Part shown: positions 30,301 to 55,447 of the stretch, piece after piece
Layout of the letters: every line of letters begins with the position of its first letter
Position numbering within the stretch: the stretch's first letter is position 1
Source of the DNA: a candidate division WWE3 bacterium RIFCSPHIGHO2_02_FULL_38_14
GTDB taxonomy: Bacteria > Patescibacteriota > WWE3 > UBA101185 > UBA10185
Reading direction: 5' to 3'
DNA: 64,000 nt
Assembly (NCBI GenBank): GCA_001772865.1
Contig: MEVD01000015.1
Span: forward strand, 9,084-73,083
Program-made: the position numbers and the translations under genes
The notes under the pieces: generated by a model
What the model saw: only the letters and a program-made list of their open reading frames with translations
What the model was told of the DNA's origin: nothing
Databases searched by the model: none

Positions 30301-32638
30301 CTCCCGGACCAAATTTCTCATCTTCGGTTCTGATTTTAACATTAAGCTTTTTCGACTCCGCCGGAACCGAAATATTTAAATACTTGCTCTCAAATTTCGA
30401 TCCCGAAAATATTCCCACATTTACAAAAATGTTCGGCATGTCAGTTTCCTCAAGTTTCAGCTCAAACACTTCTGAAGGCTTAGAAATATGCATTACCTGA
30501 TACCTGTTTACATAATTCCTGTGAAAAGAAATAAAGGCGTCAGTATTTATTTCCCTCGAAGAAATTAAGAGCTTCACGGTATCACCGGGCTTGTACTCTT
30601 TTTTATCCAACTGCATTTCAAATGCCTGAGGATTTTCCGAAGAATAAAACGGATACCTGTCATCATAAACCCACGAAAAAAATGTTTTTTCAAGAGTATT
30701 GCCGGCTTGGTCGGTGGCGGTAACTTTAAATCTGTAAGAACCCGGAAGATCAGGAGTAATCCTAAAACTCACATCACCTTTTGAATTTGTTTTTTCAGTC
30801 ACGTTTGCTATAGGATCCACCCGCATTTCATATGTGGGGTATTTTGACTCCGGTTTTTTAACTTCCACCCAATATTCCCGCGTCACCTGGGCATTAACTT
30901 GCACACCTGAAACATTAGAATCCCTGTAGGGAAATAATATTAGGGGAAGATCCAGTGGCTGATTGATTCTGTTAGAATACGAATATTCATCGCTTCTGAA
31001 AATTCCAAAATTTGCCGGATAGACTAAAATATTTCTTTGATCAGTGCTGGGATTGCCCGATCCGTCGTCGACCGTGGCCTCAAAAACATATATCTTCGGA
31101 TCAGGAGATTTTAAAGTAATTACATTAACGTCTGTTTCGCCGTTTTCATCCAAAAATATACTACCTTCAACTATTTTGTTCCCCGAACTGAACCAATACC
31201 CGTACCTGTAGTCGCTCTCGCTGAATCTTCTGGAATCGGAATAATATTCATATTCATAAATATCGTGGGCATAAACGGTATACGTTACAGAAACTCCGCT
31301 CAAAGGCTGCCCTGAAAAATAATTTCCTTTTAACTTAAAGTCAAATATATCGCCCGCAACCGCTTCGGTGATGGGAGTATCAACTTCAATAAAATATTCC
31401 GGCTTCCTGAAGTATTCAACATTAATATAAGCATAATTAACATCCGGCGAACCTGCGGCATTAATCATAATTGTATAGTTTCCTGTTTTGGTTTTTTCCG
31501 GAATCAACGACTCACCAAAAACCGTGCCATCGCCCGAAATATTTAGCCGTTCGTTGTAAATTATATTTTCGTTCTCATTCCAACCGTAATAAATTTTTAC
31601 ATTGGCCGCACCCTGTGGGATTGAATATTTGGCATCGTTATCCGACCTAATAATAGATTTAAAGTAAATGGTATCTCCGGGCCTGTAAATCGGTCGGTCA
31701 GTGAAAATAAAATATTTTGAATTCTTTGTTTTTTCCTCATACCCCGTCCAGCTCCATCCCCAGTTCAATGATGTAAGGTTCATAGGAATAAACGAAACAC
31801 TGCCACCTGATTCCGCAACCGCCAGATCCGCCCGCTCATTATAACTTGTTGTAGAAATTCCCTGGGCATCAAAACGGTCTTCATCGAGCTTTTCTATTCT
31901 GTTCAACAGGTTATAAGTGCGCACAACCCCTTCAGTAATGACCTTTTTGCTTTTATAATTTTGCCCCCAGAATATAAATTCGTTTTCGCCCTCGGTAGAC
32001 ATAACTCCGAAATTGCTCACAACGGCAAATGACTGTTTGTTTAATCCGCCGATATTTACATCAACCAGCCAGATCCCAGGCTTGCCCGAAGGCAGGTTTA
32101 CAGTTGTAGAAGCGCTTTTTACATCTGTAACATTCAGTGAAAATGAGCTCGCTTTTTCCAGACCGGATGTGCTGAGGCTTTTATCTACCTGATTAAACTC
32201 TTTGTCGTGTATCAAAAAGGTTAAAAGATTATTTGTGCCGGCATTATACAAATCCACCGTAAGCTTGCCGGTGACATTTTTAATATTTATTTCAATCTGG
32301 GGATTTTCAAGATCGCTGAAATTAATTAAACCCTGCATTCCACCGTAATAAAACTGTTCTCTGAGTGATTCGATTTTGCGGATGCCTATTTCGGGAGGAA
32401 TTTCTTCCGTACTTGCTAAAACCGCTGAATCACCCGCACTGCCGGGCTCAAATGCAACAGGCTCTTCCAGATTTTCCTGAGCAGTCTGCAAATTTGTTAA
32501 TTTACTTTTAAGTTCCGCGTTTCGGGCTAAACGGCTATTCTGTGATAAACCATCTAATTTAACGGTCTTAAAAATAAACAATCCGGAAAAAACAATTAAT
32601 AATAGCGAGAAATAGGTTATTAAGATCTTTTTAGGCAT
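27359..32638 (-). CDS. Alpha-2-macroglobulin family protein (thioester-containing), TM-anchored at both termini, with Hint/BIL domain inserted at the bait-region position
   Basis: 1759 aa. N-terminal TM/signal. Thioester motif YPYGCIEQTTSRL about aa 1217. TED-like MQNWDGGWSWW. Post-bait motif PRTVFKDTAYWNP. C-terminal TM IIMIFVVFAAVVMAVVIAS. Hint domain about aa 855-983. Confidence 0.85.
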   Translation of the reverse strand: MPKKILITYFSLLLIVFSGLFIFKTVKLDGLSQNSRLARNAELKSKLTNLQTAQENLEEPVAFEPGSAGDSAVLASTEEIPPEIGIRKIESLREQFYYGGMQGLINFSDLENPQIEINIKNVTGKLTVDLYNAGTNNLLTFLIHDKEFNQVDKSLSTSGLEKASSFSLNVTDVKSASTTVNLPSGKPGIWLVDVNIGGLNKQSFAVVSNFGVMSTEGENEFIFWGQNYKSKKVITEGVVRTYNLLNRIEKLDEDRFDAQGISTTSYNERADLAVAESGGSVSFIPMNLTSLNWGWSWTGYEEKTKNSKYFIFTDRPIYRPGDTIYFKSIIRSDNDAKYSIPQGAANVKIYYGWNENENIIYNERLNISGDGTVFGESLIPEKTKTGNYTIMINAAGSPDVNYAYINVEYFRKPEYFIEVDTPITEAVAGDIFDFKLKGNYFSGQPLSGVSVTYTVYAHDIYEYEYYSDSRRFSESDYRYGYWFSSGNKIVEGSIFLDENGETDVNVITLKSPDPKIYVFEATVDDGSGNPSTDQRNILVYPANFGIFRSDEYSYSNRINQPLDLPLILFPYRDSNVSGVQVNAQVTREYWVEVKKPESKYPTYEMRVDPIANVTEKTNSKGDVSFRITPDLPGSYRFKVTATDQAGNTLEKTFFSWVYDDRYPFYSSENPQAFEMQLDKKEYKPGDTVKLLISSREINTDAFISFHRNYVNRYQVMHISKPSEVFELKLEETDMPNIFVNVGIFSGSKFESKYLNISVPAESKKLNVKIRTEDEKFGPGENVEIQVETKDNNGRPVSADTALWIVDKALFELFPPDGRKIFDAFWSERFNETGFSNSLESISMDAAGGYGGCFTGDTLVLTEGNVFKHISEVEPGEYVLTRKSYDSGELVKAKVLNVHKTDVEGYLIINGDLKVTPEHVLRINDTWKTAGNIDTGDLLLGLDGSSAEVRSVEWVLDSVTVYNLEVENYHTYFAGGVWVHNDKGGTSAPRTVFKDTAYWNPSLKTDESGKATVTVKLPDNLTTWVISDIADTRETQVGQSTKEIVVTKDVIVRPIHPNLARVGDKMVMSSLVQNYTDNDSTFEVSLKVEENGGNDLSRSRELPLRGLTNPVQISSNSVKQIYWDYIPGFANEKTKFTYSAVSTENEEDSDTITVELPIKNFGYKEKTASTKYDSASYEINIPEDVLESESNYQLFLSSSLTGSMLSSMKYLVNYPYGCIEQTTSRLVPVIIAASNPDILSEALKEKNTDAMIDEGLERLRAMQNWDGGWSWWSSKISDVGITSYVAEYLVLLDTLKPGAVDDLLTSSKMYLENAQPNSLLDPIRIYSLSVMGSDKGKSFVSLSNDMTPDVLAYGVMANIRNGFKDNSKNGVSLILSKAVKQGESLFWESGAGDRFGSRDASTGLVVNALIMANVDKDTIFKGVRYLSNSRKHDYWSNTFGTVQVMRALVEYSKSVGELNPDFKYEVMLGDDVISSGAVTSAKQKINTLDLKGIKKGNAINLKVNKEGTGQLYSTMVLDQFRTAVETSKRSDGISISREYVNSKNPAYSLSVGETVNVNLIVEGLAYSESYGVLEDQLPAGMVPINYKFDNEKKSDSNLITHYYYNYGYNYYVREYTQNGVVMSLYSVPTGKFSYSYKARVVSEGEFLTPPATVSLMYSPEISGRSEAQVVTTSRNLVISKGTTTPLGGQLAAIFNANYSPKSRVLIIMIFVVFAAVVMAVVIASTLFVVKGIDARRLLKGRSKKSVDEASGNGESPHTEK
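29699..30075 (-). other. Hint (Hedgehog/intein) domain, bacterial-intein-like, embedded in the A2M ORF
   Basis: Block A CFTGDTLVLTEG (Cys1 codon 30073..30075), block B KVTPEHVL (TxxH), blocks F/G VYNLEVENYHTYFAGGVWVHN (Asn codon 29699..29701). The +1 residue is Asp (DKGG), so canonical splicing is not expected. Confidence 0.8.
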
Positions 32639-41544: not shown

Positions 41545-42090
41545 TCAAAACATCGAAACCTTTTCCGGGCCGCGATCATTATTATTCATCATAAACTCAA
41601 CCATTTTTACTTCGTCAATACTATCCAGCTTAAGCATTTGACCCCAAGAAACCATTATTATCGGCGAACTCATGTTTTTTCTTGGCATCATCATTTTCTT
41701 ACCCTTAAAACTATTATTGAAAATATCCTTAAGTTGATTAACTTGGTCTTCAGAAAGTTTTTCTGGATCATAGTTTAAACTTACCGCACCATGCTCTAAA
41801 CTGTGTACCATCAAACCGTCGTCAACTATATCATCGTGTATTCCCGGACCGGCAACTCCATCTCCATAATGATCTCCGGATGTAGGAGGATCACTAACTG
41901 CCATTAATTGTCCTCTGGGAATATGGTTTCTTCCGGCTTCCGGAATACTTTCACCGGCTAGTGGCAAGTCATTTTTGCTTTCTTGCTTAGAGGCTAGAAA
42001 TATAATTCCGACAAAAATTAGTAAAGTAAAAAATCCGATGGACAGTAGTATCCATTTTTCATTTACAGAATGTGAATATTTTTGGCTCAT
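41545..42090 (-). CDS. DUF3105-like membrane-anchored protein
   Basis: N-terminal TM. PPTSGDHYG...HSLEHGAVSLNY pattern as in DUF3105. Adjacent to ccdA. Confidence 0.5.
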   Translation of the reverse strand: MSQKYSHSVNEKWILLSIGFFTLLIFVGIIFLASKQESKNDLPLAGESIPEAGRNHIPRGQLMAVSDPPTSGDHYGDGVAGPGIHDDIVDDGLMVHSLEHGAVSLNYDPEKLSEDQVNQLKDIFNNSFKGKKMMMPRKNMSSPIIMVSWGQMLKLDSIDEVKMVEFMMNNNDRGPEKVSMF

Positions 42091-42839
42091 ATATATAAAA
42101 ACCTTATATTAAGAAAATAAATAATTTGCATAGAAATAAACTCGGCTTTTCCGGTTATTAGTGCTATTCCCATTAATATTAGTATAGTTCCGGATAATAT
42201 TTGAGATACACGAGTCAGGTATTTGAACCTTCTAATTAATGGTAGAAGTTTTTCGGACAAAAGTCCAAACGCAATAAAAGGCATTCCCATGCCTAATCCA
42301 AAAACAAATAAAAGCAGGGTACCTTTTAATATTGTTTCAGACTGACTCGCCCAAAATAAAATTGACGCTAAAACCGGACCAATACAGGGAGTCCAGGCAA
42401 ATCCGAAGGTTAGTCCAAACCAAAATGAATTTACAAGTTTAAATTTAGTTAAGTTAGTCGGAAAATTTAATCTTCTTTCTTTTAATAACCCAAAAGGTTT
42501 AATTACACCTAAAACGAACAAACCTAATAATAGAATTGCGATGCCGCCTATTTTTTGAATTATTAATCTATAAGAATTGAAAACATGACCTAAAGTAGAC
42601 GCAGTAAGCCCGAAGATTAGAAAAATCAACAAGAAGCCAAATACAAAAGCGAGAGAATTGTAGAAAATAGTAACTTTATACTTACTGCATTTTTCACTGC
42701 CCGCTAACTCGGATAATGACGTACCTGCAAGATATGCGATATATGTAGGTACTAATGGCAAAAGACAGGAGGTAAAGAAAGTTAATATGCCTCCTGCGAA
42801 TGCTACTAAAAGTGTAACTTGAGAGCTGCTTTCAATCAT
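42087..42839 (-). CDS. ccdA: Cytochrome c-type biogenesis / thiol-disulfide transporter CcdA (DsbD transmembrane-domain family)
   Basis: TM1 FTSCLLPLVP and TM4 WTPCIGPVLASIL conserved Cys motifs. 6 TM. Confidence 0.8.
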   Translation of the reverse strand: MIESSSQVTLLVAFAGGILTFFTSCLLPLVPTYIAYLAGTSLSELAGSEKCSKYKVTIFYNSLAFVFGFLLIFLIFGLTASTLGHVFNSYRLIIQKIGGIAILLLGLFVLGVIKPFGLLKERRLNFPTNLTKFKLVNSFWFGLTFGFAWTPCIGPVLASILFWASQSETILKGTLLLFVFGLGMGMPFIAFGLLSEKLLPLIRRFKYLTRVSQILSGTILILMGIALITGKAEFISMQIIYFLNIRFLYI

Positions 42840-42847
42840 GTTGTATG

Positions 42848-43642
42848 TTAGCTCTTCAACATCTCATCTATAGCTTGTTTTATTTGATCAAAGGGTACTG
42901 CCCCCGGTATTACTCTGGTTTTTCCTGTTTTTGTATCAAGAAGAATATTTCCCGGTGTTCCGTTAACTCCGGCAGTAATACCTGATTGATAGTCCTCCTC
43001 AATATGTATTGCCATTTCACCTGAATCTAAGCATGTTTGAAATGCTTGTTTATTTAAACCAACTCCTGCTGCTAAATCCGGAAGTGTGGCTAAATCTAAA
43101 CCATTATTGGCGGGTGTAACCTCGAATATTTTGTCTGTCAGTTTCCAAAAGCCGTCATTGCCAGCCAATTTATAGGCACACTCAACTGCTTCAGCTTCTT
43201 TGTCTGCTTTAGAATGCAGTTGGTCTATAGGAAAATGTCTGTAAACCCACATTACATCGTTAATATAAGTATCAACCACTTGTTTTGCAGTCGGATGAAA
43301 TCTTTTACAAAATGGACATTCCAAATCAGAATATTCAATAAGCGCGATTCTGGCATTAGGGTTTCCACGAAAATGATCGTCTTTACCAATTGGTTTTACG
43401 TCGCCAGCAACTCTTTCCGTAGGTACAGCCGCCTGAGCAGAAGGAGCAGTACCATTTCCAGCAGTTGTCGGACCTGATGCACCAGAACCAGACTCATACA
43501 TCTTAACCTTAGTAAATAAAACCCCGATAAAGAATGAAGCACCGAGTAAAAGTATAACCAGAAACAAAATAATAATATTATTGGTTCCCAATTGTTTTAA
43601 TAAGTTAGTATTATTACTTTCTTCAGACATAATCACTTCCAA
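42848..43642 (-). CDS. Membrane-anchored DsbA-like thiol:disulfide oxidoreductase (canonical order)
   Basis: N-terminal TM, CPFC active site (ALIEYSDLECPFCKRFHPT), C-terminal cis-Pro region GVNGTPGNILL. Confidence 0.75.
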   Translation of the reverse strand: MEVIMSEESNNTNLLKQLGTNNIIILFLVILLLGASFFIGVLFTKVKMYESGSGASGPTTAGNGTAPSAQAAVPTERVAGDVKPIGKDDHFRGNPNARIALIEYSDLECPFCKRFHPTAKQVVDTYINDVMWVYRHFPIDQLHSKADKEAEAVECAYKLAGNDGFWKLTDKIFEVTPANNGLDLATLPDLAAGVGLNKQAFQTCLDSGEMAIHIEEDYQSGITAGVNGTPGNILLDTKTGKTRVIPGAVPFDQIKQAIDEMLKS

Positions 43643-43692: not shown

Positions 43693-43709
43693 TACTACAT
43701 ATTGTAGTA
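43693..43709. promoter_or_regulatory. Operator-like perfect palindrome TACTACA-TAT-TGTAGTA (TACA/TGTA core as in BlaI/MecI/CopY boxes) in the promoter region of dsbA-ccdA-DUF3105
   Basis: 7-bp perfect inverted arms with a 3-bp spacer. An identical 15-bp core occurs at 45085..45099. Confidence 0.55.
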
Positions 43710-43734
43710 ATGTATTGGCAATCTTGTCAATATT

Positions 43735-44691
43735 TTATTTAATTGAAACAAGCGAAACAGAAGAATAGTTATCCGGATTATTATTAACGGATGGTACCAA
43801 GTAAGAATTACAGTGTGAATTGCTATTGCATTGGTATAGAAAACAAACGGAACTTTCTTTTACTGATAACACCTCTCCGGCATGAGTACTTGAAGGGTAA
43901 ATACTAAAAAGGCCAAAGATCGAAAATATAATAATTGTGGAAACAAACGCTTTTACACTCCCACGTCTATTACTTTTCAATTTTCTCATAGAAAAAGACG
44001 CAACAAAATCATACGCTAATTGATTATTACTAAAAACATTTATAGCCGATTCTAAATAACTTGAAGTTCGTTGAATTTTAACCACCGTTTTGTCTGCTTC
44101 ATTTTCCAAACTGTCTTTAAATTGTCGTATAAAAACCGATAATAGTGGTACAAAAAATAATGCTGATTTAACTATTTCCATAATAAATATAAATAAAACA
44201 TGAGAGTATTTTAAATGATGTAATTCATGCAGAATAACCGAGTCCAATTCGTTTGTATTAAGTGAATCAATAAGCCTTGTGGAAATTAATATTTTGGTTT
44301 TACGCATGCCATAGCTAAATGCTATTAATTCATTGCTTTTTATTACGATTATTGAATCCAAATGATTTGAGGCAGCCATAGAATATAATACTTTGTTCGG
44401 CAATTTATTTAGTTTCTGCGATGTTAGTTTTTTAATTTTACTTTTTGTTTTAAAAAACGAAAATATAGTTTTAGCAGTAATGGCAATCGAAGATAAAATC
44501 ACCAATGCCAATACTCCTAACCCAACTACATGAACGTTTAATGGCCATATCAAACTTGCTAGTCGCTGGCATTTTTCATGTAAATGTACTAATACTTCAA
44601 GGGAATATTTTGAAAACAATCCAAATATCATAGAAATTGAGAGAAGTGATAAAAATATAACTAAAAACATATATTTTTTTGGATTGTTCAT
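43735..44691 (-). CDS. M56-family (BlaR1/MecR1-like) membrane zinc metalloprotease without a C-terminal sensor domain
   Basis: HELHHLK (HExxH) in a polytopic membrane protein. Translationally coupled to the upstream BlaI-like gene. Confidence 0.7.
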   Translation of the reverse strand: MNNPKKYMFLVIFLSLLSISMIFGLFSKYSLEVLVHLHEKCQRLASLIWPLNVHVVGLGVLALVILSSIAITAKTIFSFFKTKSKIKKLTSQKLNKLPNKVLYSMAASNHLDSIIVIKSNELIAFSYGMRKTKILISTRLIDSLNTNELDSVILHELHHLKYSHVLFIFIMEIVKSALFFVPLLSVFIRQFKDSLENEADKTVVKIQRTSSYLESAINVFSNNQLAYDFVASFSMRKLKSNRRGSVKAFVSTIIIFSIFGLFSIYPSSTHAGEVLSVKESSVCFLYQCNSNSHCNSYLVPSVNNNPDNYSSVSLVSIK

Positions 44692-45083
44692 ATCTTATTA
44701 TTATTAGGAAATTTTTCCAACTCTTCAGCAAAATAAGCAACTGCCTCCGACCCGAATCTATTTATCATAACTTCTATTACCTTAAACACTGTGTTTCTTA
44801 ATGTTTTACTCTTGCTATCAATAGGGGAATACAAATATGATTTCCCGATAAACTTCCTTGATAAAAAACGTTTCTCCGTTAGTCTTGTCATAATTGTCAT
44901 TATTGTTGTATAAGCAATTTGTCTCCTTTGTATTAAACATTGATATATATCCGAAACAGTGCAATTACCAATGCTCCATATACATTCCATTATTTCTTGC
45001 TCTAAAGGACCTAAATTGTAAGTTCTTGATCTGTAAATAAAGTTTTTGTTTTTTTTAACTGAACCATTATAATTTCTTGACAT
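44688..45083 (-). CDS. BlaI/MecI/CopY-family winged-helix transcriptional repressor
   Basis: 131 aa. N-terminal wHTH LGPLEQEIMECIW....TVSDI, then a C-terminal dimerisation helix. Confidence 0.8.
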   Translation of the reverse strand: MSRNYNGSVKKNKNFIYRSRTYNLGPLEQEIMECIWSIGNCTVSDIYQCLIQRRQIAYTTIMTIMTRLTEKRFLSRKFIGKSYLYSPIDSKSKTLRNTVFKVIEVMINRFGSEAVAYFAEELEKFPNNNKI

Positions 45084-45084
45084 G

Positions 45085-45099
45085 TACTACATATTGTAG
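45085..45099. promoter_or_regulatory. Second copy of the TACTACATATTGTAG operator palindrome, at the blaI-like start and in the divergent region shared with the Cys-rich gene
   Basis: Exact 15-bp match to 43693..43707, beginning 2 nt upstream of the repressor start codon. Confidence 0.55.
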
Positions 45100-45137
45100 G
45101 ATATACTTAATTCGGATTCAAGTATCTTTATAAGTAA

Positions 45138-45755
45138 ATGCATATGAAAAGTAAAAGTTCAGTAATAATTCTTATATTTTTAATATTATTTATAACAGCT
45201 ACTTTAACATTTTTATATTACCGTTTCGGCACTTTAAACAAAAGCTATCAAAAAAACATTTCAACAACCACAAATGATGATCCGCTTTATCAAAAATTCC
45301 AAACTCTCTCTGTATCGGGAAATTCGTCATGTTCTCTAAATTTTAAGGAAAGCATTTATAACATGGATGATACCGAAAGGCTTCAAGGGTCTTGCTGCAG
45401 TACTATGATTTTCCACAGATATAAGGAACAGGTAGAAGGCATGAAAAAATATGCGAACATCTCGCAGATTCCATCCGACCCTTATGATATTACTGCTATA
45501 TTAGCTAAAGAACTACTTAAATACGATGAAGAAATCACACTCACCCAAGAAGAACAAGACCAATATAACGAGGCAGTAAATATGTCGGAAGAAAAAGGTC
45601 CGTGCTGCTGCAGATGTTGGAGATGGTACGTATACGAAGGACTTGGAAAGTATTTAATTAAAAATAAAGGTTTTAGGGGAAGGGAATTGGCTGAATTTTG
45701 GAACCTTTCCGATGGCTGCGGTGGCGACAGACACATTCCTGGTGTTCATTCATAA
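45138..45755 (+). CDS. Cys-rich membrane-anchored protein
   Basis: N-terminal TM. Clusters CSLNF...GSCCSTM...GPCCCRCWRW...DGCGGDRH. Confidence 0.4.
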   Translation: MHMKSKSSVIILIFLILFITATLTFLYYRFGTLNKSYQKNISTTTNDDPLYQKFQTLSVSGNSSCSLNFKESIYNMDDTERLQGSCCSTMIFHRYKEQVEGMKKYANISQIPSDPYDITAILAKELLKYDEEITLTQEEQDQYNEAVNMSEEKGPCCCRCWRWYVYEGLGKYLIKNKGFRGRELAEFWNLSDGCGGDRHIPGVHS

Positions 45756-45944: not shown

Positions 45945-46421
45945 TCAACAACAATTTTTAAGCCGCGATTGAAGACTAGAAGATTTTTCTTCCTTACTTT
46001 CTTTAGCTTTTATAATAGGAGTTAATGCCAAAAATCCAAACAAAATAACCGGTGCAAACAACAGCAAACCTAAAATTTCGTGGATTAAAGTATAAATTAA
46101 TACCGCCATTGTTCCGAAGATTATTATCCCAAACTTTAACAGCAGCTCCGGTACTTTTACTTGTCTGACAAAAATAAACTCATCAGTCAAGTAGGAAACT
46201 CCCACCACAGATTCAGCCAACAGGAGGGAGATTATACCTCTATCAATTTGAACTAAATGCGAGTACTTCAAAAATAAGAGCGTTAGCCATGTTGAGCCAA
46301 CCGCAAAACATATAGGGCAAACTCTTCTCCCAATTATCCTGGCTACGGAAAATCCGAACTTATAATAAAAACCAAAAAATATAAGCTGCAATAATAAAAC
46401 CAACACTATTTGCTCAACCAT
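45945..46421 (-). CDS. Small polytopic membrane protein
   Basis: 158 aa, 4 TM. Confidence 0.35.
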   Translation of the reverse strand: MVEQIVLVLLLQLIFFGFYYKFGFSVARIIGRRVCPICFAVGSTWLTLLFLKYSHLVQIDRGIISLLLAESVVGVSYLTDEFIFVRQVKVPELLLKFGIIIFGTMAVLIYTLIHEILGLLLFAPVILFGFLALTPIIKAKESKEEKSSSLQSRLKNCC

Positions 46422-47616
46422 ATATTATCGCTCCTATCCACAAATACACACCTAAACCAATTAATATCATCATTATACCTGTAACTAAATGTAGCCTCTT
46501 AGCACTTTTCATTTCAATAGTCTCAACTTTTTCCAGCAACCTTTTGTTTGACGATGCAATTACTACAAGAAGTAAAGGTAATACAAATATTAAGTTATAA
46601 ATTAACAGGTATAACACAAATTCGGCTGACTTTGTTGCCGCGAGCGTAGATATTACCACCGTATATATTCCTCCTGTGCACGGAAACGCACACAGCCCCA
46701 CCAACGCACCCACTACAAAAGCAGTAGGTACTGAAGCTTTTTCCATAAAACTTTGAATCGCATCTTTTGTAAAGTCGGGAATTCTTAAGTGAATTGGTAA
46801 GTTTGGAAAGAAATAATCTTTAACATTAATTATTCCTAAAACTATTAAAACTAAAGATGCCACTTTTGCCACAAAAAAAGGTTCACTGGATAAAGAAATT
46901 GCTTTTAAAATTCCCAAACCTATTAGGAAGTAAACAATAAAAATACCGACTACATAAGCTAAACCCATACCAACTATAGCTTTTCTTTTTTTATTTAGAG
47001 TGTATAAAAATGTGAGTAATAGCAAAAGAACTGCTATCGCACATGGATGGAGGCTATTGCTGATAGCTCCTATAATTAACGGCATAATAATACTACCACT
47101 CAAATTGGTATCATTTTCCTCAACGGGTTTTTCTTTTATAAGGTTAACAATATCTCTGTCTGTTTGAATCTTCTCAAGATCATATCCGAAAACATACAAA
47201 GTAAACTCATTTGTTGTTGAATGCATTTCGGGCTGATATAAAACAATTAATCTGTGCGGTGGAAGCCTTTCATAATTTTCCAAAAGTTGATCAATAACGT
47301 TTAAAGGTACATGTCCTTCTACAACAAGATTTGGCTTTAAAAATAAGGTTAAACTATCCTGCAACTCTATTGGTACGTTATATGATTTATTTTCTTCGCT
47401 TAAATCTTTTCTATAGTCTGGTTGGTTTATGTAATCTTTGAGATTCGCAGATATATTGTATTTCTTCAAAACAGGTTCAACTTCCTTAATATAGGTAATA
47501 CAATCTGAGCACGCTTCATTATAATAAACGTTTGCACGCTCTTGCGCCCAAACCTTATAAGTGTTTAGCGCGTATCCTAAAAATATAATAGCTATAATAA
47601 AAATAAATTTCTTCAT
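46414..47616 (-). CDS. DsbD/CcdA-like transmembrane thiol-disulfide protein with N-terminal soluble CxxC domain
   Basis: Signal peptide, soluble domain with CSDC, TM domain with HPCAIAV and CAFPCTGG Cys pairs. Confidence 0.5.
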   Translation of the reverse strand: MKKFIFIIAIIFLGYALNTYKVWAQERANVYYNEACSDCITYIKEVEPVLKKYNISANLKDYINQPDYRKDLSEENKSYNVPIELQDSLTLFLKPNLVVEGHVPLNVIDQLLENYERLPPHRLIVLYQPEMHSTTNEFTLYVFGYDLEKIQTDRDIVNLIKEKPVEENDTNLSGSIIMPLIIGAISNSLHPCAIAVLLLLLTFLYTLNKKRKAIVGMGLAYVVGIFIVYFLIGLGILKAISLSSEPFFVAKVASLVLIVLGIINVKDYFFPNLPIHLRIPDFTKDAIQSFMEKASVPTAFVVGALVGLCAFPCTGGIYTVVISTLAATKSAEFVLYLLIYNLIFVLPLLLVVIASSNKRLLEKVETIEMKSAKRLHLVTGIMMILIGLGVYLWIGAIIYG

Positions 47617-48023
47617 ATTATTTTTCCTGTAATTTTCACTTTATATTCCTTTTCAATAGGATTTGTAATCAAAAAATAAACTTCATGGTTTATTTCATCT
47701 CCCTTTACATGCATAGAACTTGGGTCAAATTCAAAAAGCACTTGTGCGGTTTTTCCGGGCTTTATAACTAGAGGCATTGCACTTGATTCCTGCTCAATTA
47801 ACCTAGTGCAACCGCATGAGGTATAAGCTTTGGTTAACTCAAATTCATTATAAGATGGATTTATAAGAGCTACTTCAAATTCCTTTTTTGAATCAATATT
47901 AACGTTTCCTAAATCTACTTCAGTATTTAACAAAAGATCGTTGGCAGAAGTTAATTCTCTTATTAAAACCACCGCAATTATAGAAATTATAAATATTGAA
48001 GTTAAAAGCAATTTTCCTTTCAT
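47613..48023 (-). CDS. DUF1573-family secreted protein
   Basis: 136 aa. Signal, and the TSCGCT motif characteristic of DUF1573. Confidence 0.55.
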   Translation of the reverse strand: MKGKLLLTSIFIISIIAVVLIRELTSANDLLLNTEVDLGNVNIDSKKEFEVALINPSYNEFELTKAYTSCGCTRLIEQESSAMPLVIKPGKTAQVLFEFDPSSMHVKGDEINHEVYFLITNPIEKEYKVKITGKII

Positions 48024-48049
48024 ATCGTTATCTTTCCTTAAAAAATAAC

Positions 48050-48646
48050 TTACTTCGTAACTTCTGCGTCAAAAGAGAATTGAATGTTTGGACTGTCTTT
48101 AAGATTTGTAGACAAAATTATATTTCTTTTTATCGGACCTACTCCTTGTGGTCCATGGGCATTTGGGTCAAAAACAGTCTTCACTTTTACAGTTTCACCA
48201 GCTTTTATTATTTTCCCGACATAAAAATCATTCTGTCCTCCGTGACCTTTCATGCCATTAAATCCCGTTAGAGTTCCGTCGGCCAATATAAGCTGAGCTT
48301 TTGTACACATACAGGAGGTAAAAAGTTCTTTAATAAAGATGTCTTCACTCCCCGTATTAGTCAATTCATATATAGTTTCTACATTACCGTCTTTCATTGA
48401 AATTGTTCCAAAGCTAAACGAATTTTTATCAACTTCGTAAGTAGAATTTGATACTCCGGCTGCTTCTTGATTTTGTGCTTCAGTACCTTGTGATCTTGTG
48501 GTTAGAAATATTACTCCCGCTATAACAATTGTCGGTATTAATACTATATATATTAGCGGTTTAAACATTCCAAAAATTCCGCTACTTTTTTCTTTATGGT
48601 CTTTATGACAGTTTTTACCCATGTAATCCTTTCTTAAACTCCACAA
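48050..48646 (-). CDS. DUF1573-family membrane-anchored protein (paralog)
   Basis: 198 aa. N-terminal TM, TSCMCT motif. Confidence 0.55.
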   Translation of the reverse strand: MWSLRKDYMGKNCHKDHKEKSSGIFGMFKPLIYIVLIPTIVIAGVIFLTTRSQGTEAQNQEAAGVSNSTYEVDKNSFSFGTISMKDGNVETIYELTNTGSEDIFIKELFTSCMCTKAQLILADGTLTGFNGMKGHGGQNDFYVGKIIKAGETVKVKTVFDPNAHGPQGVGPIKRNIILSTNLKDSPNIQFSFDAEVTK

Positions 48647-49581
48647 CCGCCGCCACCCTTTGGAGCTTGTGGCAATGATTTAATTTGAGATCTCATTTGT
48701 CTGTAACCCGAAGCGCTTGAATAGTTCATTCCCAAAGCTGTTTTAGCGTCAATCTGATTCCAGTCTCTGCCATTTTCTTTAAAATAAACTGCCATTTCCT
48801 GATACTGTTGAGGGAACCAAAGTGCGTTAACATCCAGAGCAACTTTGTAAGCTTCTTGTACCGACACATTATTAACAGCCATAAGTTCCAAAAGCCCCAG
48901 CATGGCCATCCCATGATTACAATCAGGAAAATGTGTCGAATTGTTGCAGCATGGTCTATAAATATTCTTAGACATTTCTTCTACCATTTTCTGTTGGTCG
49001 GTAGTTAATGTTACAAAGTTGTGCGCGCTGTAATGATCCATGGCTTTTCCCTTAGATAGACTCCAACCACCTGTGCTAGCCATATTTCCGGTTTGTGAAG
49101 GCTCCTGCATCATTTCTCCTTTGTTTAAAACATCATTTTTATTAGCCAAACCAAAAGCCCAAAGCATGTTAAGAATTAACCTTGCATTAGCTTGATTCAT
49201 TACAATTTCACCGTTGCTATTTCCATCTAAAAGCTTTTTATCATTTTCTGACAATGTGCCCATAACTTCTGAAAACTTAGTGCTATCTATTACCCCTGTA
49301 TCCACTAACTTCTTTCCTAAATCCGACCACTTAATAGGTAATTTAACTTCTTGAGGAATTGATTGAACTACAACCTGGTCTGGTTTTGTAGCCAGGTTAG
49401 CCGGATCATTTTGTGTTTTTTTGGACTGGTAATTTGGAGTTATTCTTAATTCGATACTAAATAAGTAATTGAATACCAAAATAAATACAAGAACAGAGCT
49501 TACTAAAGCCCATTTGCTAAACGATATTAAGCTTGTAATTTTCTGTAATTTTTCTTTCATGGAGCAATTATGAAACCTCAA
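48634..49581 (-). CDS. Secreted Cys-containing protein
   Basis: 315 aa. N-terminal TM/signal. PCCNNSTHFPDCNHGMAMLGL. C-terminal GGGGCGV. Confidence 0.4.
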   Translation of the reverse strand: MRFHNCSMKEKLQKITSLISFSKWALVSSVLVFILVFNYLFSIELRITPNYQSKKTQNDPANLATKPDQVVVQSIPQEVKLPIKWSDLGKKLVDTGVIDSTKFSEVMGTLSENDKKLLDGNSNGEIVMNQANARLILNMLWAFGLANKNDVLNKGEMMQEPSQTGNMASTGGWSLSKGKAMDHYSAHNFVTLTTDQQKMVEEMSKNIYRPCCNNSTHFPDCNHGMAMLGLLELMAVNNVSVQEAYKVALDVNALWFPQQYQEMAVYFKENGRDWNQIDAKTALGMNYSSASGYRQMRSQIKSLPQAPKGGGGCGV

Positions 49582-49677: not shown

Positions 49678-50364
49678 ATGAGACTTCTAATAATAGAAGA
49701 TGAAAAGGATCTCGCTGAAAATATTAAAAAAGGCTTAGTCGAAGAAGGATTTGCCGTGGATATTTCAATAGATGGTGAGGATGGAAAATTTATGATTGAA
49801 ACCGAGCCTTATGACCTTGTCATCTTGGATATAATGCTCCCAAAAATAGATGGAATTACTCTTTGCAAAGATATAAGATCAAAAGGAATTAAAACACCGA
49901 TATTAATGCTTACGGCAAAATCTACATTAGAAAACAAAATAAAGGGGTTTGACGTAGGCGCGGATGATTATTTAACAAAACCATTTGATTTTGTAGAACT
50001 CAAAGCAAGAGTTCATGCACTATTAAGAAGAGCCGGAAATATTGAACTTCCCATTTTAGAAATCGCGGATCTTAAAATGGATCCACAAAAACATGAGGTA
50101 TTTAGAAATTCCGAAAAACTGGATTTAACTCCAAAGGAATTCTCAATTTTAGAATTATTACTAAAAAATAAAGAAAAGGTTGTAACTCGTACTATGATAG
50201 TAGAGCATGTTTGGGATTATAACTTTGAAAGTATGAGCAACTTAGTGGACGTATTAATAGGCACACTAAGAAAAAAAGTTGACAAAAAAGGTATGAAAAA
50301 ACTAATTAAAACAGTTTATGGAGTTGGTTTTAAGCTTTCAGAAGAAAATAATGAAAAACCTTAG
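49678..50364 (+). CDS. OmpR/PhoB-family response regulator
   Basis: Receiver domain (LIIEDE...DLVILDIMLP.IDG...K) plus winged-helix output domain (...YGVGFKL). Confidence 0.9.
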   Translation: MRLLIIEDEKDLAENIKKGLVEEGFAVDISIDGEDGKFMIETEPYDLVILDIMLPKIDGITLCKDIRSKGIKTPILMLTAKSTLENKIKGFDVGADDYLTKPFDFVELKARVHALLRRAGNIELPILEIADLKMDPQKHEVFRNSEKLDLTPKEFSILELLLKNKEKVVTRTMIVEHVWDYNFESMSNLVDVLIGTLRKKVDKKGMKKLIKTVYGVGFKLSEENNEKP

Positions 50365-51730
50365 CATAAAATTACAACTTACTATTTGGTATTCGCTTAT
50401 TATCATGGTGATTTCTGTAGTTTTGTTTTTTTCTTTTTATATAATTACACAAAGATCAATTCTTATGGAAACAGATAGATCTCTTTTTACCCACGCTTCA
50501 TCAATAGCTGAAAACATTGGATTAAATACCAGTAATGTGTATGACGATCAGACAGAAGAGATTGTGTTTGTAAGCAAGACACAAATTCCTGGTATATTTC
50601 TTGAGGTAACAGATACTAATGGGCATATCGTTAATAACGAAGAGACTGCAATATTACAAGATTTAATAGTGCGGGCAATTCAAACAAAAACTCCTTCTTA
50701 TACGAACAGAAAACTAGGTGTTAGCGATTTAAGAATTATAGCTTTCCCCATCAATAATAATGGACAAATTATTGGAACTGTTGTAATGGGACACCCTGTT
50801 GATGTCTATACAAATGCATTAGGGGTACTTAAAAAAACATTACTTCTTCTGGCTTTATTTTTTATAGCACCCTTCATTGCAACAGGTTATTTTCTATCGC
50901 AAAATGCAGTATCTCCAATAGTCATATTATCTAAAAGAATCTCTCAAATAACAGAGGAAAACTTGTCAGAGAGAATTACTGTTCCATCAAAATCTTCTGA
51001 AACTTTTATGCTTGTCGAAAACTTTAACAATCTATTAGATAGGTTAAAGAACGCGTTTTTAAAGGAAAGACAGTTTGTAGGAGAAGTAGCTCATGAAATT
51101 AAAACTCCTCTGGCAGTAATAAAAAGTAATGCTGAAGTTACTTTATCTAAAAAAAGAGATATGGATGAGTATGAAAAGTCTCTAAATCAAGTTTTAGAAC
51201 ACACTAATAAACTGACTAAAAGCTTATCAGGATTAATAGATTTTGCCTGGTCCCAAACAACTGATGTCACAATACAATTTAATAAAATTAACTTATCGGA
51301 CTTATTAAAAGGTATTTGTGATAATAGCCGCTATCTTGCACAAACTAAAAATTTAGAAGTTAATTGTGATATTAATGAAAATATAATTGTTTTAGGAAAA
51401 AAAGATAAACTTTCACAAGTTTTTATTAATATTATCGATAATTCTGTTAAATTCACTCCCCAAAACGGTTCTATATCCATAAAATTATATGTGAAACAAG
51501 ACCTTGCTATTGCTGAAGTAAAAGATACCGGTTTGGGAATTGGCAAGGAGGACCTAAGAACCATATTTGACAGGTTTACCCGAGCTAAAGGCAACGAACA
51601 TATTCAAGGACACGGACTTGGTCTCGCTATAGCATATGCGATTGTTAAAGCGCACGGTGGTGATATTGAAGTTGAAAGCGAAAAAAATAAGGGAACTGTA
51701 TTTACCGTAAAGCTAAAACTTTCTTCATAA
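50351..51730 (+). CDS. Sensor histidine kinase
   Basis: Two TM, HAMP-like region, H-box HEIKTPL, N/G boxes (DTGLGIG, GHGLGLAIA). Probable ATG at 50351 overlaps the regulator stop. Confidence 0.85.
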   Translation: MKNLSIKLQLTIWYSLIIMVISVVLFFSFYIITQRSILMETDRSLFTHASSIAENIGLNTSNVYDDQTEEIVFVSKTQIPGIFLEVTDTNGHIVNNEETAILQDLIVRAIQTKTPSYTNRKLGVSDLRIIAFPINNNGQIIGTVVMGHPVDVYTNALGVLKKTLLLLALFFIAPFIATGYFLSQNAVSPIVILSKRISQITEENLSERITVPSKSSETFMLVENFNNLLDRLKNAFLKERQFVGEVAHEIKTPLAVIKSNAEVTLSKKRDMDEYEKSLNQVLEHTNKLTKSLSGLIDFAWSQTTDVTIQFNKINLSDLLKGICDNSRYLAQTKNLEVNCDINENIIVLGKKDKLSQVFINIIDNSVKFTPQNGSISIKLYVKQDLAIAEVKDTGLGIGKEDLRTIFDRFTRAKGNEHIQGHGLGLAIAYAIVKAHGGDIEVESEKNKGTVFTVKLKLSS

Positions 51731-53200: not shown

Positions 53201-55447
53201 ATGAATAAAAACGAAAATATAATCTATACATGCCCAATGCATCCGGAAGTGCATAAAGAGTTACCCGGAACTTGTCCTAAATGCGGAATGACCTTAGTAA
53301 AGACTGAGACTAAAGATAACCTCAAGACGCATGTTGATATGAGACACGATATCCATTCCTCTCACGTAATGAAGCCAAATTCTGAAATGTCTTTTTGGGA
53401 AAAACTCAAAATGAGTATGTCAATGACTATGGGGATGGATCACACAGGTTTAGCAGGACGTGAAATGGCTCGTCTCATGGAAGAGGATATAAGATCTAAA
53501 TTTTTTGTATCACTCTTATTAACCGTTCCTATCGTATTGTTCTCCCCGCTCGGAAAAAACATTATGGGATTCAGCCTTCCCATACCAATTTCGGAAAACT
53601 GGTTATTGCTACTTCTTACCACACCTGTTTATTTTTACTGCGGGTGGATATTTTTATACTCAACTTATGTAGCCATTTTTAAACAAAGAACTCTAAATAT
53701 GGCTGTTCTCATCGCTGTCGGTATCACTGCTGCTTACGTATTTAGTATCGTTTTAACACTCCTAGGAAGCGAGGAATCATTTTATGAGGCTGCTGCAATG
53801 CTTATAACCTTTGTTTTGTTTGGTCACTGGATGGAAATGAAAAGCAGACGTGGTACAACCGATGCTTTACAGGCACTTTTTAATCTCGTTCCTCCGCAAG
53901 CTAGAGTCATTCGTAATGGCAAAGAAGAACTGGTACCTACAGCCGAGGTAAAACAGGGAGATATTTTAATTCTCAAACCTGGAGATAAAGTTCCAGTAGA
54001 TGGTGAGATAACCGATGGAGAAACAGCAATAGATGAATCTTTAGTTACCGGTGAATCTATACCCGTTTCAAAGCAAAAAGGAGATAAAGTAATAGGTGGT
54101 TCGATTAATACTTCGGGCTCTGTACAATTTAAAGCTACAAAAGTGGGCAAAGACACAGCGCTTGCTCAAATAGTTAAAATGGTTGAAACTGCTCAAAATT
54201 CTAAAGCCCCCGGCCAAAAACTTGCCGATAAGTTTGCGCGTTACCTCGTAGTTGTTGCAGTCGGAGGAGGTTTTTTAACATTTGCTGTTTGGTTTTTTAT
54301 TATGGGACAGACTCTCCTGTTCGCGCTAACCTTTGCAATCTCTACTGTGGTCATAGCTTGCCCTGATGCACTTGGACTCGCAACCCCCACTGCTGTAGCA
54401 GTAGGAACCGGACTTGGAGCAAAACATAACATTCTCATAAAAGACGCTCCCACGCTTGAGCAAGTTTCTAAAATCCAAGCCGTTGTACTTGATAAAACAG
54501 GCACTCTTACAGAAGGTAAACCAAAGATCACAGATGTTATTGCAGCAGTCGGATTTTCCGAAGACGAGGTTTTAAAACTGGATGCAGCGGCAGAAGCAAA
54601 ATCCTCACACCCGCTTAGTCAAGCTGTTTTAGAAGAAACTAAAAAAAGAAATATTGTAGTACCGTCCAACGTAGAAAAGTTTCAGAACCTATCAGGACAT
54701 GGTGTTGAAGCATTTGTAGAAGGAAAACACGTATTAGTAGGCACTCTTAAATTAATGTCCGATAGAAAAGTTGATACATCACCATTACAGCAAGATATAG
54801 AAAAGCTTTTGTCAGGCGGGAAAACAATAATGGTATTGGCAGTAGATAACAAAATAGCCGGTGTGGCGGCAGCGTTGGATCCCGTAAAAGAAAATGCAGG
54901 TAAAGCAATAACACGCATGAAAGAGTTAGGTTTGGAGGTTGCTATGATTACAGGAGATAATAAAAAAACAGCAGAATCTATTGGGAAACAACTTGGAATA
55001 GATCGGGTGTTCTCAGAGGTATTACCGGAAGACAAGTCCACCTATGTTAAGAAATTACAGCAGGAAGGGAAATTTGTGGCAATGGTGGGGGACGGCGTTA
55101 ATGATGCCCCCGCTTTAGCCCAGGCTGATATTGGTATTGCAATAGGAGCAGGAACAGACGTGGCAATTGAAACAGCAAAAGTAGTTCTTATGAAATCAGA
55201 TCCTGCAGATGTACTAAGAGCAATCCGTTTAAGCAAAGCTACAGTTCTAAAAATGAAACAAAATCTTTTTTGGGCTTCCATATACAATTTACTTGCCATA
55301 CCTGTTGCAGCCGGAGTTTTATATCCGAGCTTTCAAATATCTCTCAGACCGGAGATTTCGGCCTTGCTTATGAGTATCTCTTCAATAATAGTAGCAACTA
55401 ACGCTGTTTTACTTAAAAGAACAGAAAAAGACTTAGTGGAAATTTAG
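53201..55447 (+). CDS. Heavy-metal-translocating P1B-type ATPase
   Basis: N-terminal YTCPMHPEV....GTCPKCGM metal-binding region, TM CPD motif (VIACPDALGLATP), DKTGTLT, SSHPLS (HP), GDGVNDAPAL. Confidence 0.9.
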   Translation: MNKNENIIYTCPMHPEVHKELPGTCPKCGMTLVKTETKDNLKTHVDMRHDIHSSHVMKPNSEMSFWEKLKMSMSMTMGMDHTGLAGREMARLMEEDIRSKFFVSLLLTVPIVLFSPLGKNIMGFSLPIPISENWLLLLLTTPVYFYCGWIFLYSTYVAIFKQRTLNMAVLIAVGITAAYVFSIVLTLLGSEESFYEAAAMLITFVLFGHWMEMKSRRGTTDALQALFNLVPPQARVIRNGKEELVPTAEVKQGDILILKPGDKVPVDGEITDGETAIDESLVTGESIPVSKQKGDKVIGGSINTSGSVQFKATKVGKDTALAQIVKMVETAQNSKAPGQKLADKFARYLVVVAVGGGFLTFAVWFFIMGQTLLFALTFAISTVVIACPDALGLATPTAVAVGTGLGAKHNILIKDAPTLEQVSKIQAVVLDKTGTLTEGKPKITDVIAAVGFSEDEVLKLDAAAEAKSSHPLSQAVLEETKKRNIVVPSNVEKFQNLSGHGVEAFVEGKHVLVGTLKLMSDRKVDTSPLQQDIEKLLSGGKTIMVLAVDNKIAGVAAALDPVKENAGKAITRMKELGLEVAMITGDNKKTAESIGKQLGIDRVFSEVLPEDKSTYVKKLQQEGKFVAMVGDGVNDAPALAQADIGIAIGAGTDVAIETAKVVLMKSDPADVLRAIRLSKATVLKMKQNLFWASIYNLLAIPVAAGVLYPSFQISLRPEISALLMSISSIIVATNAVLLKRTEKDLVEI

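Follow-up and report, generated by a model that had tools for sequence, protein, structure and literature searches.

A 64,000-nucleotide stretch of candidate division WWE3 bacterium RIFCSPHIGHO2_02_FULL_38_14 (assembly GCA_001772865.1, contig MEVD01000015.1, positions 9,084 to 73,083 of the forward strand), here called the window, carries a gene for a BlaI-like repressor and a gene for an M56 membrane metalloprotease next to dsbA-like, ccdA and DUF3105 genes. All five lie on the minus strand. The ATG of the M56 gene overlaps the stop codon of the blaI-like gene (ATGA), a gap of 92 bp separates the M56 gene from the dsbA-like gene, and a gene for an exported Cys-rich protein diverges from blaI. 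Two copies of an inverted repeat, O1 in front of blaI and O2 between the M56 and dsbA-like genes, can be assigned with high confidence as operators of the BlaI-family repressor, judging from the sequence patterns described below. The genes of the locus are as follows, with positions counted from the first base of the window.

44688–45083, minus strand: BlaI/CopY-family winged-helix repressor of 131 residues; PF03965 at residues 24–121 (80.9 bits against a cut-off of 22.6; 1e-22).
43735–44691, minus strand: M56/M48 membrane metalloprotease of 318 residues; HELHH at residues 155–159 and ENEAD at 196–200.
42848–43630, minus strand: membrane-anchored DsbA/DsbC-like thiol-disulfide oxidoreductase; thioredoxin fold with CPFC at residues 105–108; Thioredoxin_4/DSBA above cut-off; probable start at the ATG at 43630.
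42087–42839, minus strand: CcdA/DsbD_TM membrane conduit for reducing equivalents; PF02683 (2.4e-19, 70 bits); match to the central domain of DsbD.
41545–42090, minus strand: membrane-anchored DUF3105 protein without cysteines.
45138–45755, plus strand: exported Cys-rich protein with eight cysteines; motifs CCS-x-M and GPCCC-x-CW, and a C-terminal GCGG followed by His.

O2 (TACTACATATTGTAGTA, 43693–43709) is a perfect 17-bp palindrome, TACTACA-TAT-TGTAGTA. O1 (TACTACATATTGTAGGA, 45085–45101) has 16 of the 17 bases of O2; the G at 45100 is a single outer mismatch, and its perfect palindrome is limited to the inner 13 bp. A preliminary description of this DNA had placed the same perfect palindrome at the start of the blaI-like gene, in the divergent region, and in the promoter region of the dsbA-like/ccdA/DUF3105 operon. 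Both places and the gene assignments hold, although only the copy in front of the dsbA-like gene is perfect. Both boxes overlap a minus-strand -10 hexamer, TACAAT, predicted by a promoter scan. The elements are arranged as follows.

45085–45101, minus strand: O1 operator, TCCTACAATATGTAGTA on the minus strand; at the promoter of the repressor gene itself, 1 nt upstream of the blaI ATG, within the 54-bp divergent region common to blaI and the Cys-rich gene.
45093–45098, minus strand: -10 hexamer TACAAT of the blaI promoter, within O1; the ATG follows 9 nt after it, so that the transcript would be almost leaderless.
45116–45121, minus strand: -35 hexamer TTGAAT of the blaI promoter, from the promoter scan; 17-nt spacer to the -10; relatives have a TTGA-type -35 at the same distance.
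43693–43709, minus strand: O2 operator, TACTACAATATGTAGTA on the minus strand; overlaps the -10 hexamer TACAAT (43701–43706) of the dsbA-operon promoter.
43725–43730, minus strand: -35 hexamer TTGACA of the dsbA-operon promoter, 5 nt past the M56 stop codon; 18-nt spacer; 11 of 12 bases matched, the best promoter of the region.
45077–45107, plus strand: putative divergent promoter, read from the sequence; -35 TTGACA (45077–45082), 19-nt spacer holding O1, -10 TATACT (45102–45107).

The two boxes are the sole matches to the pattern in the 64 kb when up to two mismatches are allowed, against 0.19 expected, and only one of 100 shuffled sequences gave two or more. A position weight matrix built from the sites of relatives only gave 27.1 bits for O2 and 25.1 bits for O1; the next best site in the window scored 4.7, and the highest score over 20 simulated windows was 10.8. 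Both scans found no further box in the window, including the copper-type ATPase, the two-component system and the second Cys-rich cluster described below. The bare core TACA-N3-TGTA occurs twice in the window against 0.93 expected, which is not significant, and the signal thus resides in the full 6+5+6 motif. The TACA/TGTA core of the BlaI/MecI/CopY family, to which the preliminary description had pointed, is present, although the classic spacing is not: classic CopY, BlaI and MecI sites are TACA-N2-TGTA, the core in the window is one base wider, and the symmetric core is TACTAC-N5-GTAGTA. A palindrome arising by chance in an AT-rich genome (GC about 35%) was considered and rejected on these window statistics and matrix scores, together with the boxes of relatives and the metagenome census given below.

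The order blaI-M56-dsbA is kept in 27 non-redundant related loci, often near ccdA, DUF3105, a Cys-rich protein, a p315-like protein or a heavy-metal ATPase, and homologs of the repressor come from Microgenomates-type bacteria of the candidate phyla radiation (CPR), namely Woese-, Roizman-, Davies- and Pacebacteria. These 27 loci hold 41 boxes with at most one mismatch against 0.1 expected, and relatives keep the box at both positions even with a repressor identity of only 40–65%. The blaI-side box lies 1–5 nt upstream of the start codon in at least 15 relatives, and in 22 the dsbA-side box comes directly after the stop codon of the M56 gene, ahead of dsbA. The geometry is fixed: TTGACA is followed after 14–15 nt by the box, whose positions 4–9 form the -10 hexamer TACA[A/C]T. 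At the dsbA-operon promoter, 20 of 22 relatives keep TTGACA at that same spacing. When the sites are oriented with transcription, T is the middle base of the palindrome at 22 of 22 dsbA-side and 19 of 19 blaI-side sites; A7 of the box never changes, in contrast to T11, its dyad partner, which does. Such asymmetries cannot arise from dyad symmetry but are accounted for by the embedded -10; once the asymmetric positions are so explained, the symmetric operator is TACTAC-N5-GTAGTA. Autoregulation, which had been predicted from the box at the repressor gene, is borne out to the extent that a box overlapping the -10 of the repressor's own promoter is kept in relatives. Several contigs in this set, L010, L011, L013, L014, L019, L020 and L025–L028 among others, bear labels such as 'uncultured Gammaproteobacteria', 'Pseudomonadales' and 'Brocadiaceae' that look wrong; these contigs of metagenome-assembled genomes have a low GC content (group mean about 39%) and CPR-type gene content.

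The same conservation bears on whether the palindrome acts in RNA, as a terminator or attenuator past the M56 gene and as a 5' structure on the blaI mRNA. O2 does lie just past the M56 stop codon, with a T-rich stretch after it. Nevertheless, neither copy folds better than shuffled sequence (z of -0.95 and +0.18), each of the 27 departures of relatives from the palindrome affects one side only, uncompensated on the other, and a terminator scan is empty at the site. Moreover, transcription is predicted to start within the box, and the blaI copy would then be transcribed only in part. A hairpin or terminator was rejected on the folding, the one-sided departures and the empty terminator scan, and its probability is very small indeed.

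The blaI ATG stands only 9 nt past the -10, which leaves no space for a Shine-Dalgarno sequence. Start codons fall 7–15 nt past the -10 at most blaI promoters and at many dsbA promoters (window 45083–45098; L005 6983–7003; dsbA of L010, L012 and L013), which implies that these CPR bacteria make mRNAs with a very short leader or none, as far as promoters can be read from sequence. For the dsbA-like gene of the window, the leader measures about 50 nt, and GGAAG precedes the ATG at 43630. In L001 (2782–2840), the ATG chosen by the gene caller lies inside the operator, and the real start is probably 57 nt downstream. On the other side of O1, the block CTTGACAT-box-GATATACTTA is conserved between the window and L001, a relative with 65% identity, and ATGTCAAG is kept at the 5' end of blaI despite differing reading frames because the divergent-promoter block is conserved. 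The arrangement is suggestive of a promoter for the Cys-rich gene, placed back to back with that of blaI and holding the operator in its spacer. Homologs of the Cys-rich gene have their own box in L010, or lie downstream of dsbA in relatives, and the gene is probably co-repressed via O1. Its product matched nothing in Pfam, NCBIfam or the PDB, and a PDB profile search with its family gave nothing usable.

The operator changes with the protein that would read it. Five DsbA-linked loci without the N3 box (L025, L028, L032, L042 and L072) have CCTACA-NN-TGTAGG at both positions, upstream of blaI and between the M56 gene and dsbA; the spacing is N2, resembling the cop box. The recognition helix of these five repressors is AYNTVQT, in contrast to AYTTVMT in those with the N3 box. 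Across 79 loci, the N2 box occurs twice at each of the five loci with an N/Q helix, the T/M helix accompanies all 41 N3-box loci, and there are no crossovers. Since the operator has changed at both sites together with the helix, the BlaI-like protein rather than another regulator appears to read the box. Reading of the box by a nearby OmpR-type response regulator or a CsoR-type repressor, with blaI close by only incidentally, could find some footing in the two-component system at 49678–51730 and in the CsoR-like genes that are box-controlled in two metagenome loci. This is quite improbable, as the box accompanies blaI-M56 across lineages even at loci without a nearby two-component system, its 6-N5-6 inverted-repeat geometry is that of experimentally defined BlaI-family sites, and the operator variant tracks the BlaI recognition helix in 5 of 5 and 41 of 41 cases. 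The sub-clade with the N/Q helix amounts to a natural swap of specificity that can be used for experiments.

A census with the pattern TTGACA-N14/15-TACTACANTNNGTAGTA (20 specified bases) in a metagenome collection, in which no protein was used for the search, found at least 120 loci matching promoter plus box. The counts that follow are among the matches listed. The site lies directly past an M56 gene at 59 of 117 distinct sites, and of the 110 sites with a downstream open reading frame, 49 are followed by a DsbA-like gene, the most frequent class. The others are combinations of HMA, DsbD_2 and cupredoxin (15), a small membrane protein ending in QSMVGGC (10), BlaI (9), a p315-like Cys-rich protein (7), BNR-like proteins (3), another Cys-rich family (3), and DUF305, CsoR/RcnR-like and DUF3105 proteins (2 each); four are unclassified. 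For 32 of the 49 DsbA-like genes, no more than 7 nt separate box and start codon, which makes short or absent leaders the rule. Fusions of about 500 residues with HMA, DsbD_2 membrane and cupredoxin-like parts are recurrently box-controlled (L092, L116, L126, L128, L143, L166 and L189), an architecture that connects metal binding with transmembrane thiol chemistry. Many box-controlled exported proteins have a glycine-cysteine C-terminus (QSMVGGC, GCGG, GGGGCGV or GCGCGGGGGSTCGGSK; L037 9470-, L062 4454-, L080 9545-, L176, L184, L185 and L191, and also L058, L064 and L092). Those ending in QSMVGGC form a family of small proteins with a single transmembrane segment, found at 10 of the 117 census sites.

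Profile searches of the PDB with the repressor matched BlaI of Mycobacterium tuberculosis (2g9w, 2.9e-17), which is the closest solved structure, MecI (1.6e-12), BlaI (1e-10) and CopR (9e-9). The repressor falls under the NCBIfam equivalog cut-offs of CopY_TcrY (49.8 against 121.95, the best match), MecI (31 against 250) and BlaI (25 against 180). The scissile N101-F102 bond of MecI aligns with Q-F in relatives and with R109-F110 in the window repressor, and all 27 DsbA-linked repressors have F or Y at the position aligned to Phe102. Most homologs start MTTYNLGPLEQ and lack the 23 residues by which the window repressor is extended at its N-terminus.

A pair of cysteines, C34/C49 on helices 1 and 2 of the winged helix, is found in 13 of the 27 DsbA-linked repressors and in L011 and L014 (truncated loci from that clade); the other loci that are not DsbA-linked lack it, and it occurs nowhere else among the 79. 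With the same operator and regulon, the repressor itself might be the sensor: the cytoplasmic pair would bind metal or form a disulfide and release the DNA, in the manner of CopY-type or thiol-switch regulators, leaving the M56 protein an accessory part or none. That CopY_TcrY is the best NCBIfam match speaks in the same direction. This mechanism is nonetheless unlikely. Half of the DsbA-linked systems have the same operator without C34/C49, the CxC of CopY is absent from the last 30 residues of all 79 repressors examined, the CopY_TcrY score is well under its cut-off, and all loci conserve the M56 gene, whose translation is coupled to that of blaI.

The M56 protein matches PF05569 (49.4 against a cut-off of 31) and PF01435, and its HExxH and downstream ExxAD motifs are conserved in 27 homologs; a word-indexed homolog search with the protein gave 2 matches. 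It ends about 54 residues past the last transmembrane helix, and searches with family models found no penicillin-binding (transpeptidase-like) domain. The model blaR1_generic scores 37.8 against a cut-off of 400 and aligns only over its positions 102–275 of 585, the protease core. A canonical beta-lactam-responsive BlaI/BlaR1 system, which the Pfam names Penicillinase_R and BlaR1 peptidase M56 would suggest, is refuted by this domain architecture, with no transpeptidase or penicillin-binding-protein domain and no box-controlled beta-lactamase; together with chance occurrence of the palindrome in a genome of such composition, it is given virtually no weight. The preliminary description was right that no beta-lactamase is involved; the motif is also not a frequent product of chance, and relatives conserve it at both positions.

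All four cysteines of the M56 protein lie in predicted extracytoplasmic segments, C41 in loop 1 and C283, C288 and C294 in the C-terminal tail, and C41 is invariant in the 27 homologs. Extracytoplasmic cysteines in CPR homologs number 1+3 (loop plus tail) in most cases, otherwise 1+1 or 2+4, in contrast to 0+0 in Chloroflexi homologs. With odd numbers in both loop and tail, the pairing of all cysteines would take one or more disulfides from loop to tail. On this hydropathy-based topology, the arrangement points to a putative thiol- or metal-based switch.

CcdA proteins import reducing power, and the pairing of a DsbA/DsbC-like protein with a DsbD-family protein is typical of reductive or isomerase Scs and DsbC/DsbD pathways, which are tied to copper tolerance. 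The operon of the dsbA-like, ccdA and DUF3105 genes contains neither DsbB nor VKOR. As the DsbA-like protein is paired with CcdA in an operon without DsbB or VKOR, the module looks more like a reductive or isomerase pathway of the Scs type than one for disulfide-bond formation. The proposal that the boxes control envelope thiol-redox genes stands for the operon and is refined in that its output would be reductive or isomerising and that the wider regulon includes metal genes. The invariant residues of the DUF3105 protein are H56, PPTSG-x-H74, H96-x-x-E99-H100-G and W149, among which H56, H74, H96, E99 and H100 form a His/Glu cluster. Its AlphaFold2 (AF2) model has a pLDDT of 80; Foldseek gave weak matches to thioredoxin folds, none at E of 1e-3 or below and thus a hint at most, and a profile search against PDB sequences yielded nothing usable. 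DUF3105 may be a metal-binding thioredoxin-fold protein.

Taken together, the locus is read as a regulatory switch in which BlaI-type operators and an M56 protease couple a thiol or copper signal to a thiol-redox output, a reading to which we give a probability of roughly 0.62. A repressor dimer would bind TACTAC-N5-GTAGTA and, as the -10 TACAAT lies within the operator, would block RNA polymerase at the promoters of blaI-M56 and of the dsbA-like/ccdA/DUF3105 operon, and probably also at the back-to-back promoter of the Cys-rich gene. In the M56 protein, the cysteine loop on the outside and the short tail with three cysteines would take the place of the penicillin-binding domain and sense envelope thiol stress, copper stress or both. 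The protease would then cleave the repressor near R109-F110, and the regulon would be derepressed, yielding an extracytoplasmic module for the reduction or isomerisation of disulfides, joined in relatives by metal-handling proteins. The parts of this reading differ in strength. Shown in silico are the operator, its overlap with the promoters, autoregulation, the make-up of the regulon and the tie between the repressor and operator specificity. Proteolytic control by the M56 protein is likely on grounds of homology, proteolysis of the repressor being inferred from the ATGA pairing of the two genes and from precedent. The nature of the signal, thiol stress in the envelope, copper stress or both, is a reasoned guess with somewhat less than even odds; copper or another thiol-reactive metal stress comes to the fore because the regulon of relatives holds HMA, cupredoxin, DUF305 and CsoR-like genes. 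Rather doubtful, finally, is the more specific idea that the M56 protein is itself the thiol sensor, in which the state of the loop-to-tail disulfide would gate the cytoplasmic protease, the bond being set by the DsbA-like enzyme under its control or attacked by Cu(I). If this were true, signalling of the BlaIR type would be a homeostat of thiol redox and copper stress outside the cytoplasm of CPR bacteria, and the large set of BlaR-like orphan sensors would gain a defined ligand chemistry.

Several points weigh against this reading. The five repressors with the N/Q helix are probably one clade, and the covariation of helix and operator may go back to one evolutionary event. In place of the P1 Asn at the scissile bond of MecI/BlaI, the 27 DsbA-linked repressors have R, Q or K. 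The topology of the M56 protein was predicted by a simple hydropathy rule and not taken from a structure. The putative divergent promoter would require an unusual spacer of 19 nt. The census required TTGACA, which biases it toward promoters of the dsbA type. The copper link is circumstantial, the copper-type ATPase of the window having no box in the matrix scan, and although ATPase neighbours are found at 9 of 26 DsbA-linked systems against 1 of 45 others, this comparison is confounded by phylogeny.

Among known systems, the best reading by analogy is that this one is closest in kind to the copper-responsive PetR/PetP. This pair of Synechocystis sp. PCC 6803 is a BlaIR pair without sensor domain that acts in a copper-dependent manner on a small regulon, and an extracytoplasmic loop of PetP was proposed by its authors as the copper site, the equivalent loop contacting the sensor domain in BlaR1 (bioRxiv 10.1101/2020.07.31.226407). 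Both systems consist of a BlaI/CopY repressor and an M48/M56 protease without a beta-lactam sensor, the start of the protease gene overlapping the repressor stop; the M56 protein matches PF05569 and PF01435, as is reported for PetP; and the PetR operator GACA-N3-TGTC, i.e. GAC-N5-GTC, has the same geometry. They differ in that the operator here is of the type TAC... instead of GAC..., and in that the outputs are DsbA-like, CcdA and DUF3105 proteins instead of plastocyanin and cytochrome c6. The proposed ligands in PetP are two Met in the loop that connects transmembrane helices 2 and 3, whereas the equivalent loop here has the invariant Cys (C41), accompanied by a Cys-bearing tail. PetR also activates a gene, and autoregulation through an operator with an embedded -10 is predicted only here. 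Arms of GTCTAT 5 nt apart are bound by C. thermocellum BlaI_0696 in DNA affinity purification sequencing (DAP-seq) and electrophoretic mobility shift assay (EMSA), and the 6-N5-6 geometry of BlaI_0696 and PetR is that of the window boxes.

BlaI/BlaR1 and MecI/MecR1 of Staphylococcus and Bacillus share with this system the PF03965 winged-helix repressor, the HExxH M56 core, autoregulation, a TACA/TGTA inverted-repeat operator and the aromatic residue at the scissile position. Here, however, there is neither a penicillin-binding sensor domain nor an output of beta-lactamase or PBP2a, the operator spacing is N3 instead of N2, the NCBIfam cut-offs are widely missed, and the P1 Asn has not been retained. 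CopY, CopR and TcrY of Firmicutes belong to the same family and likewise have a TACA...TGTA operator over the promoter and a copper-related genomic context, and the CCTACA-NN-TGTAGG box of the N/Q-helix sub-clade resembles the cop box. The window system differs from them by the absence of a C-terminal CxCxxxxCxC (0 of 79), by its protease partner and by the lack of a copA/copZ operon output in the window; relative to the cop box KACA-NN-TGTM, the window boxes are N3, with N2 only in the N/Q-helix sub-clade.

About 94% of M56 proteins have no beta-lactam domain and about 6% have a beta-lactam sensor, and the signals of the former are unknown (CenIR study, PMC13492132). CenI/CenR of Clostridioides difficile resembles the present system in an M56 protein whose short C-terminal region has no recognisable domain, in an envelope regulon and in the lack of a beta-lactam link (PMC13492132). 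The tail of CenR is long and unstructured, in contrast to the tail of about 50 residues with a conserved Cys motif found here, and the regulon here, unlike that of CenIR, points to a specific chemistry, that of thiols and metals. ScsC/ScsB and DsbC/DsbD also combine a DsbA/DsbC-like thioredoxin-fold protein with a membrane conduit of the DsbD family near copper genes, whereas here the regulation is by a BlaIR-type switch, CcdA represents a minimal DsbD core, and DUF3105 is an added partner.

No earlier description linking the BlaI/M56 family with DsbA, DUF3105 or CPR bacteria was found in the literature searched; apparent 'BlaI' matches in papers on CPR bacteria proved to be names of authors. 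BlaIR-type switches are abundant, and for most of them, the copper-responsive PetRP aside, neither signal nor regulon is known. The family described here offers a defined operator, a coherent thiol/metal regulon and a minimal cysteine-based candidate sensor, by which the signal becomes testable in a heterologous host. Well-resolved transcriptional regulons are rare in CPR bacteria such as this uncultured one, and here promoter architecture and near-leaderless starts are readable from sequence. The case also cautions against counting CPR genes annotated as 'BlaI/BlaR1' among antibiotic-resistance determinants.

Elsewhere in the window, a second cluster of Cys-rich envelope genes occupies 45945–49581 on the minus strand. 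It encodes a transmembrane protein with CPIC, a 400-residue DsbD/ArsG-like protein with an N-terminal CSDC, two DUF1573 proteins and a 315-residue Cys-rich protein ending in GGGGCGV. The cluster adjoins a divergent OmpR/HisKA two-component system (49678–51730, plus strand). Nearby, at 53201–55447 on the plus strand, lies a copper-type P1B ATPase that passes TIGR01511 and has CPD instead of CPC as the motif of transmembrane helix 4. This boxless cluster, the two-component system and the ATPase are probably under separate control. The largest open reading frame of the window by far, of 1759 residues, lies at 27359–32638 on the minus strand.

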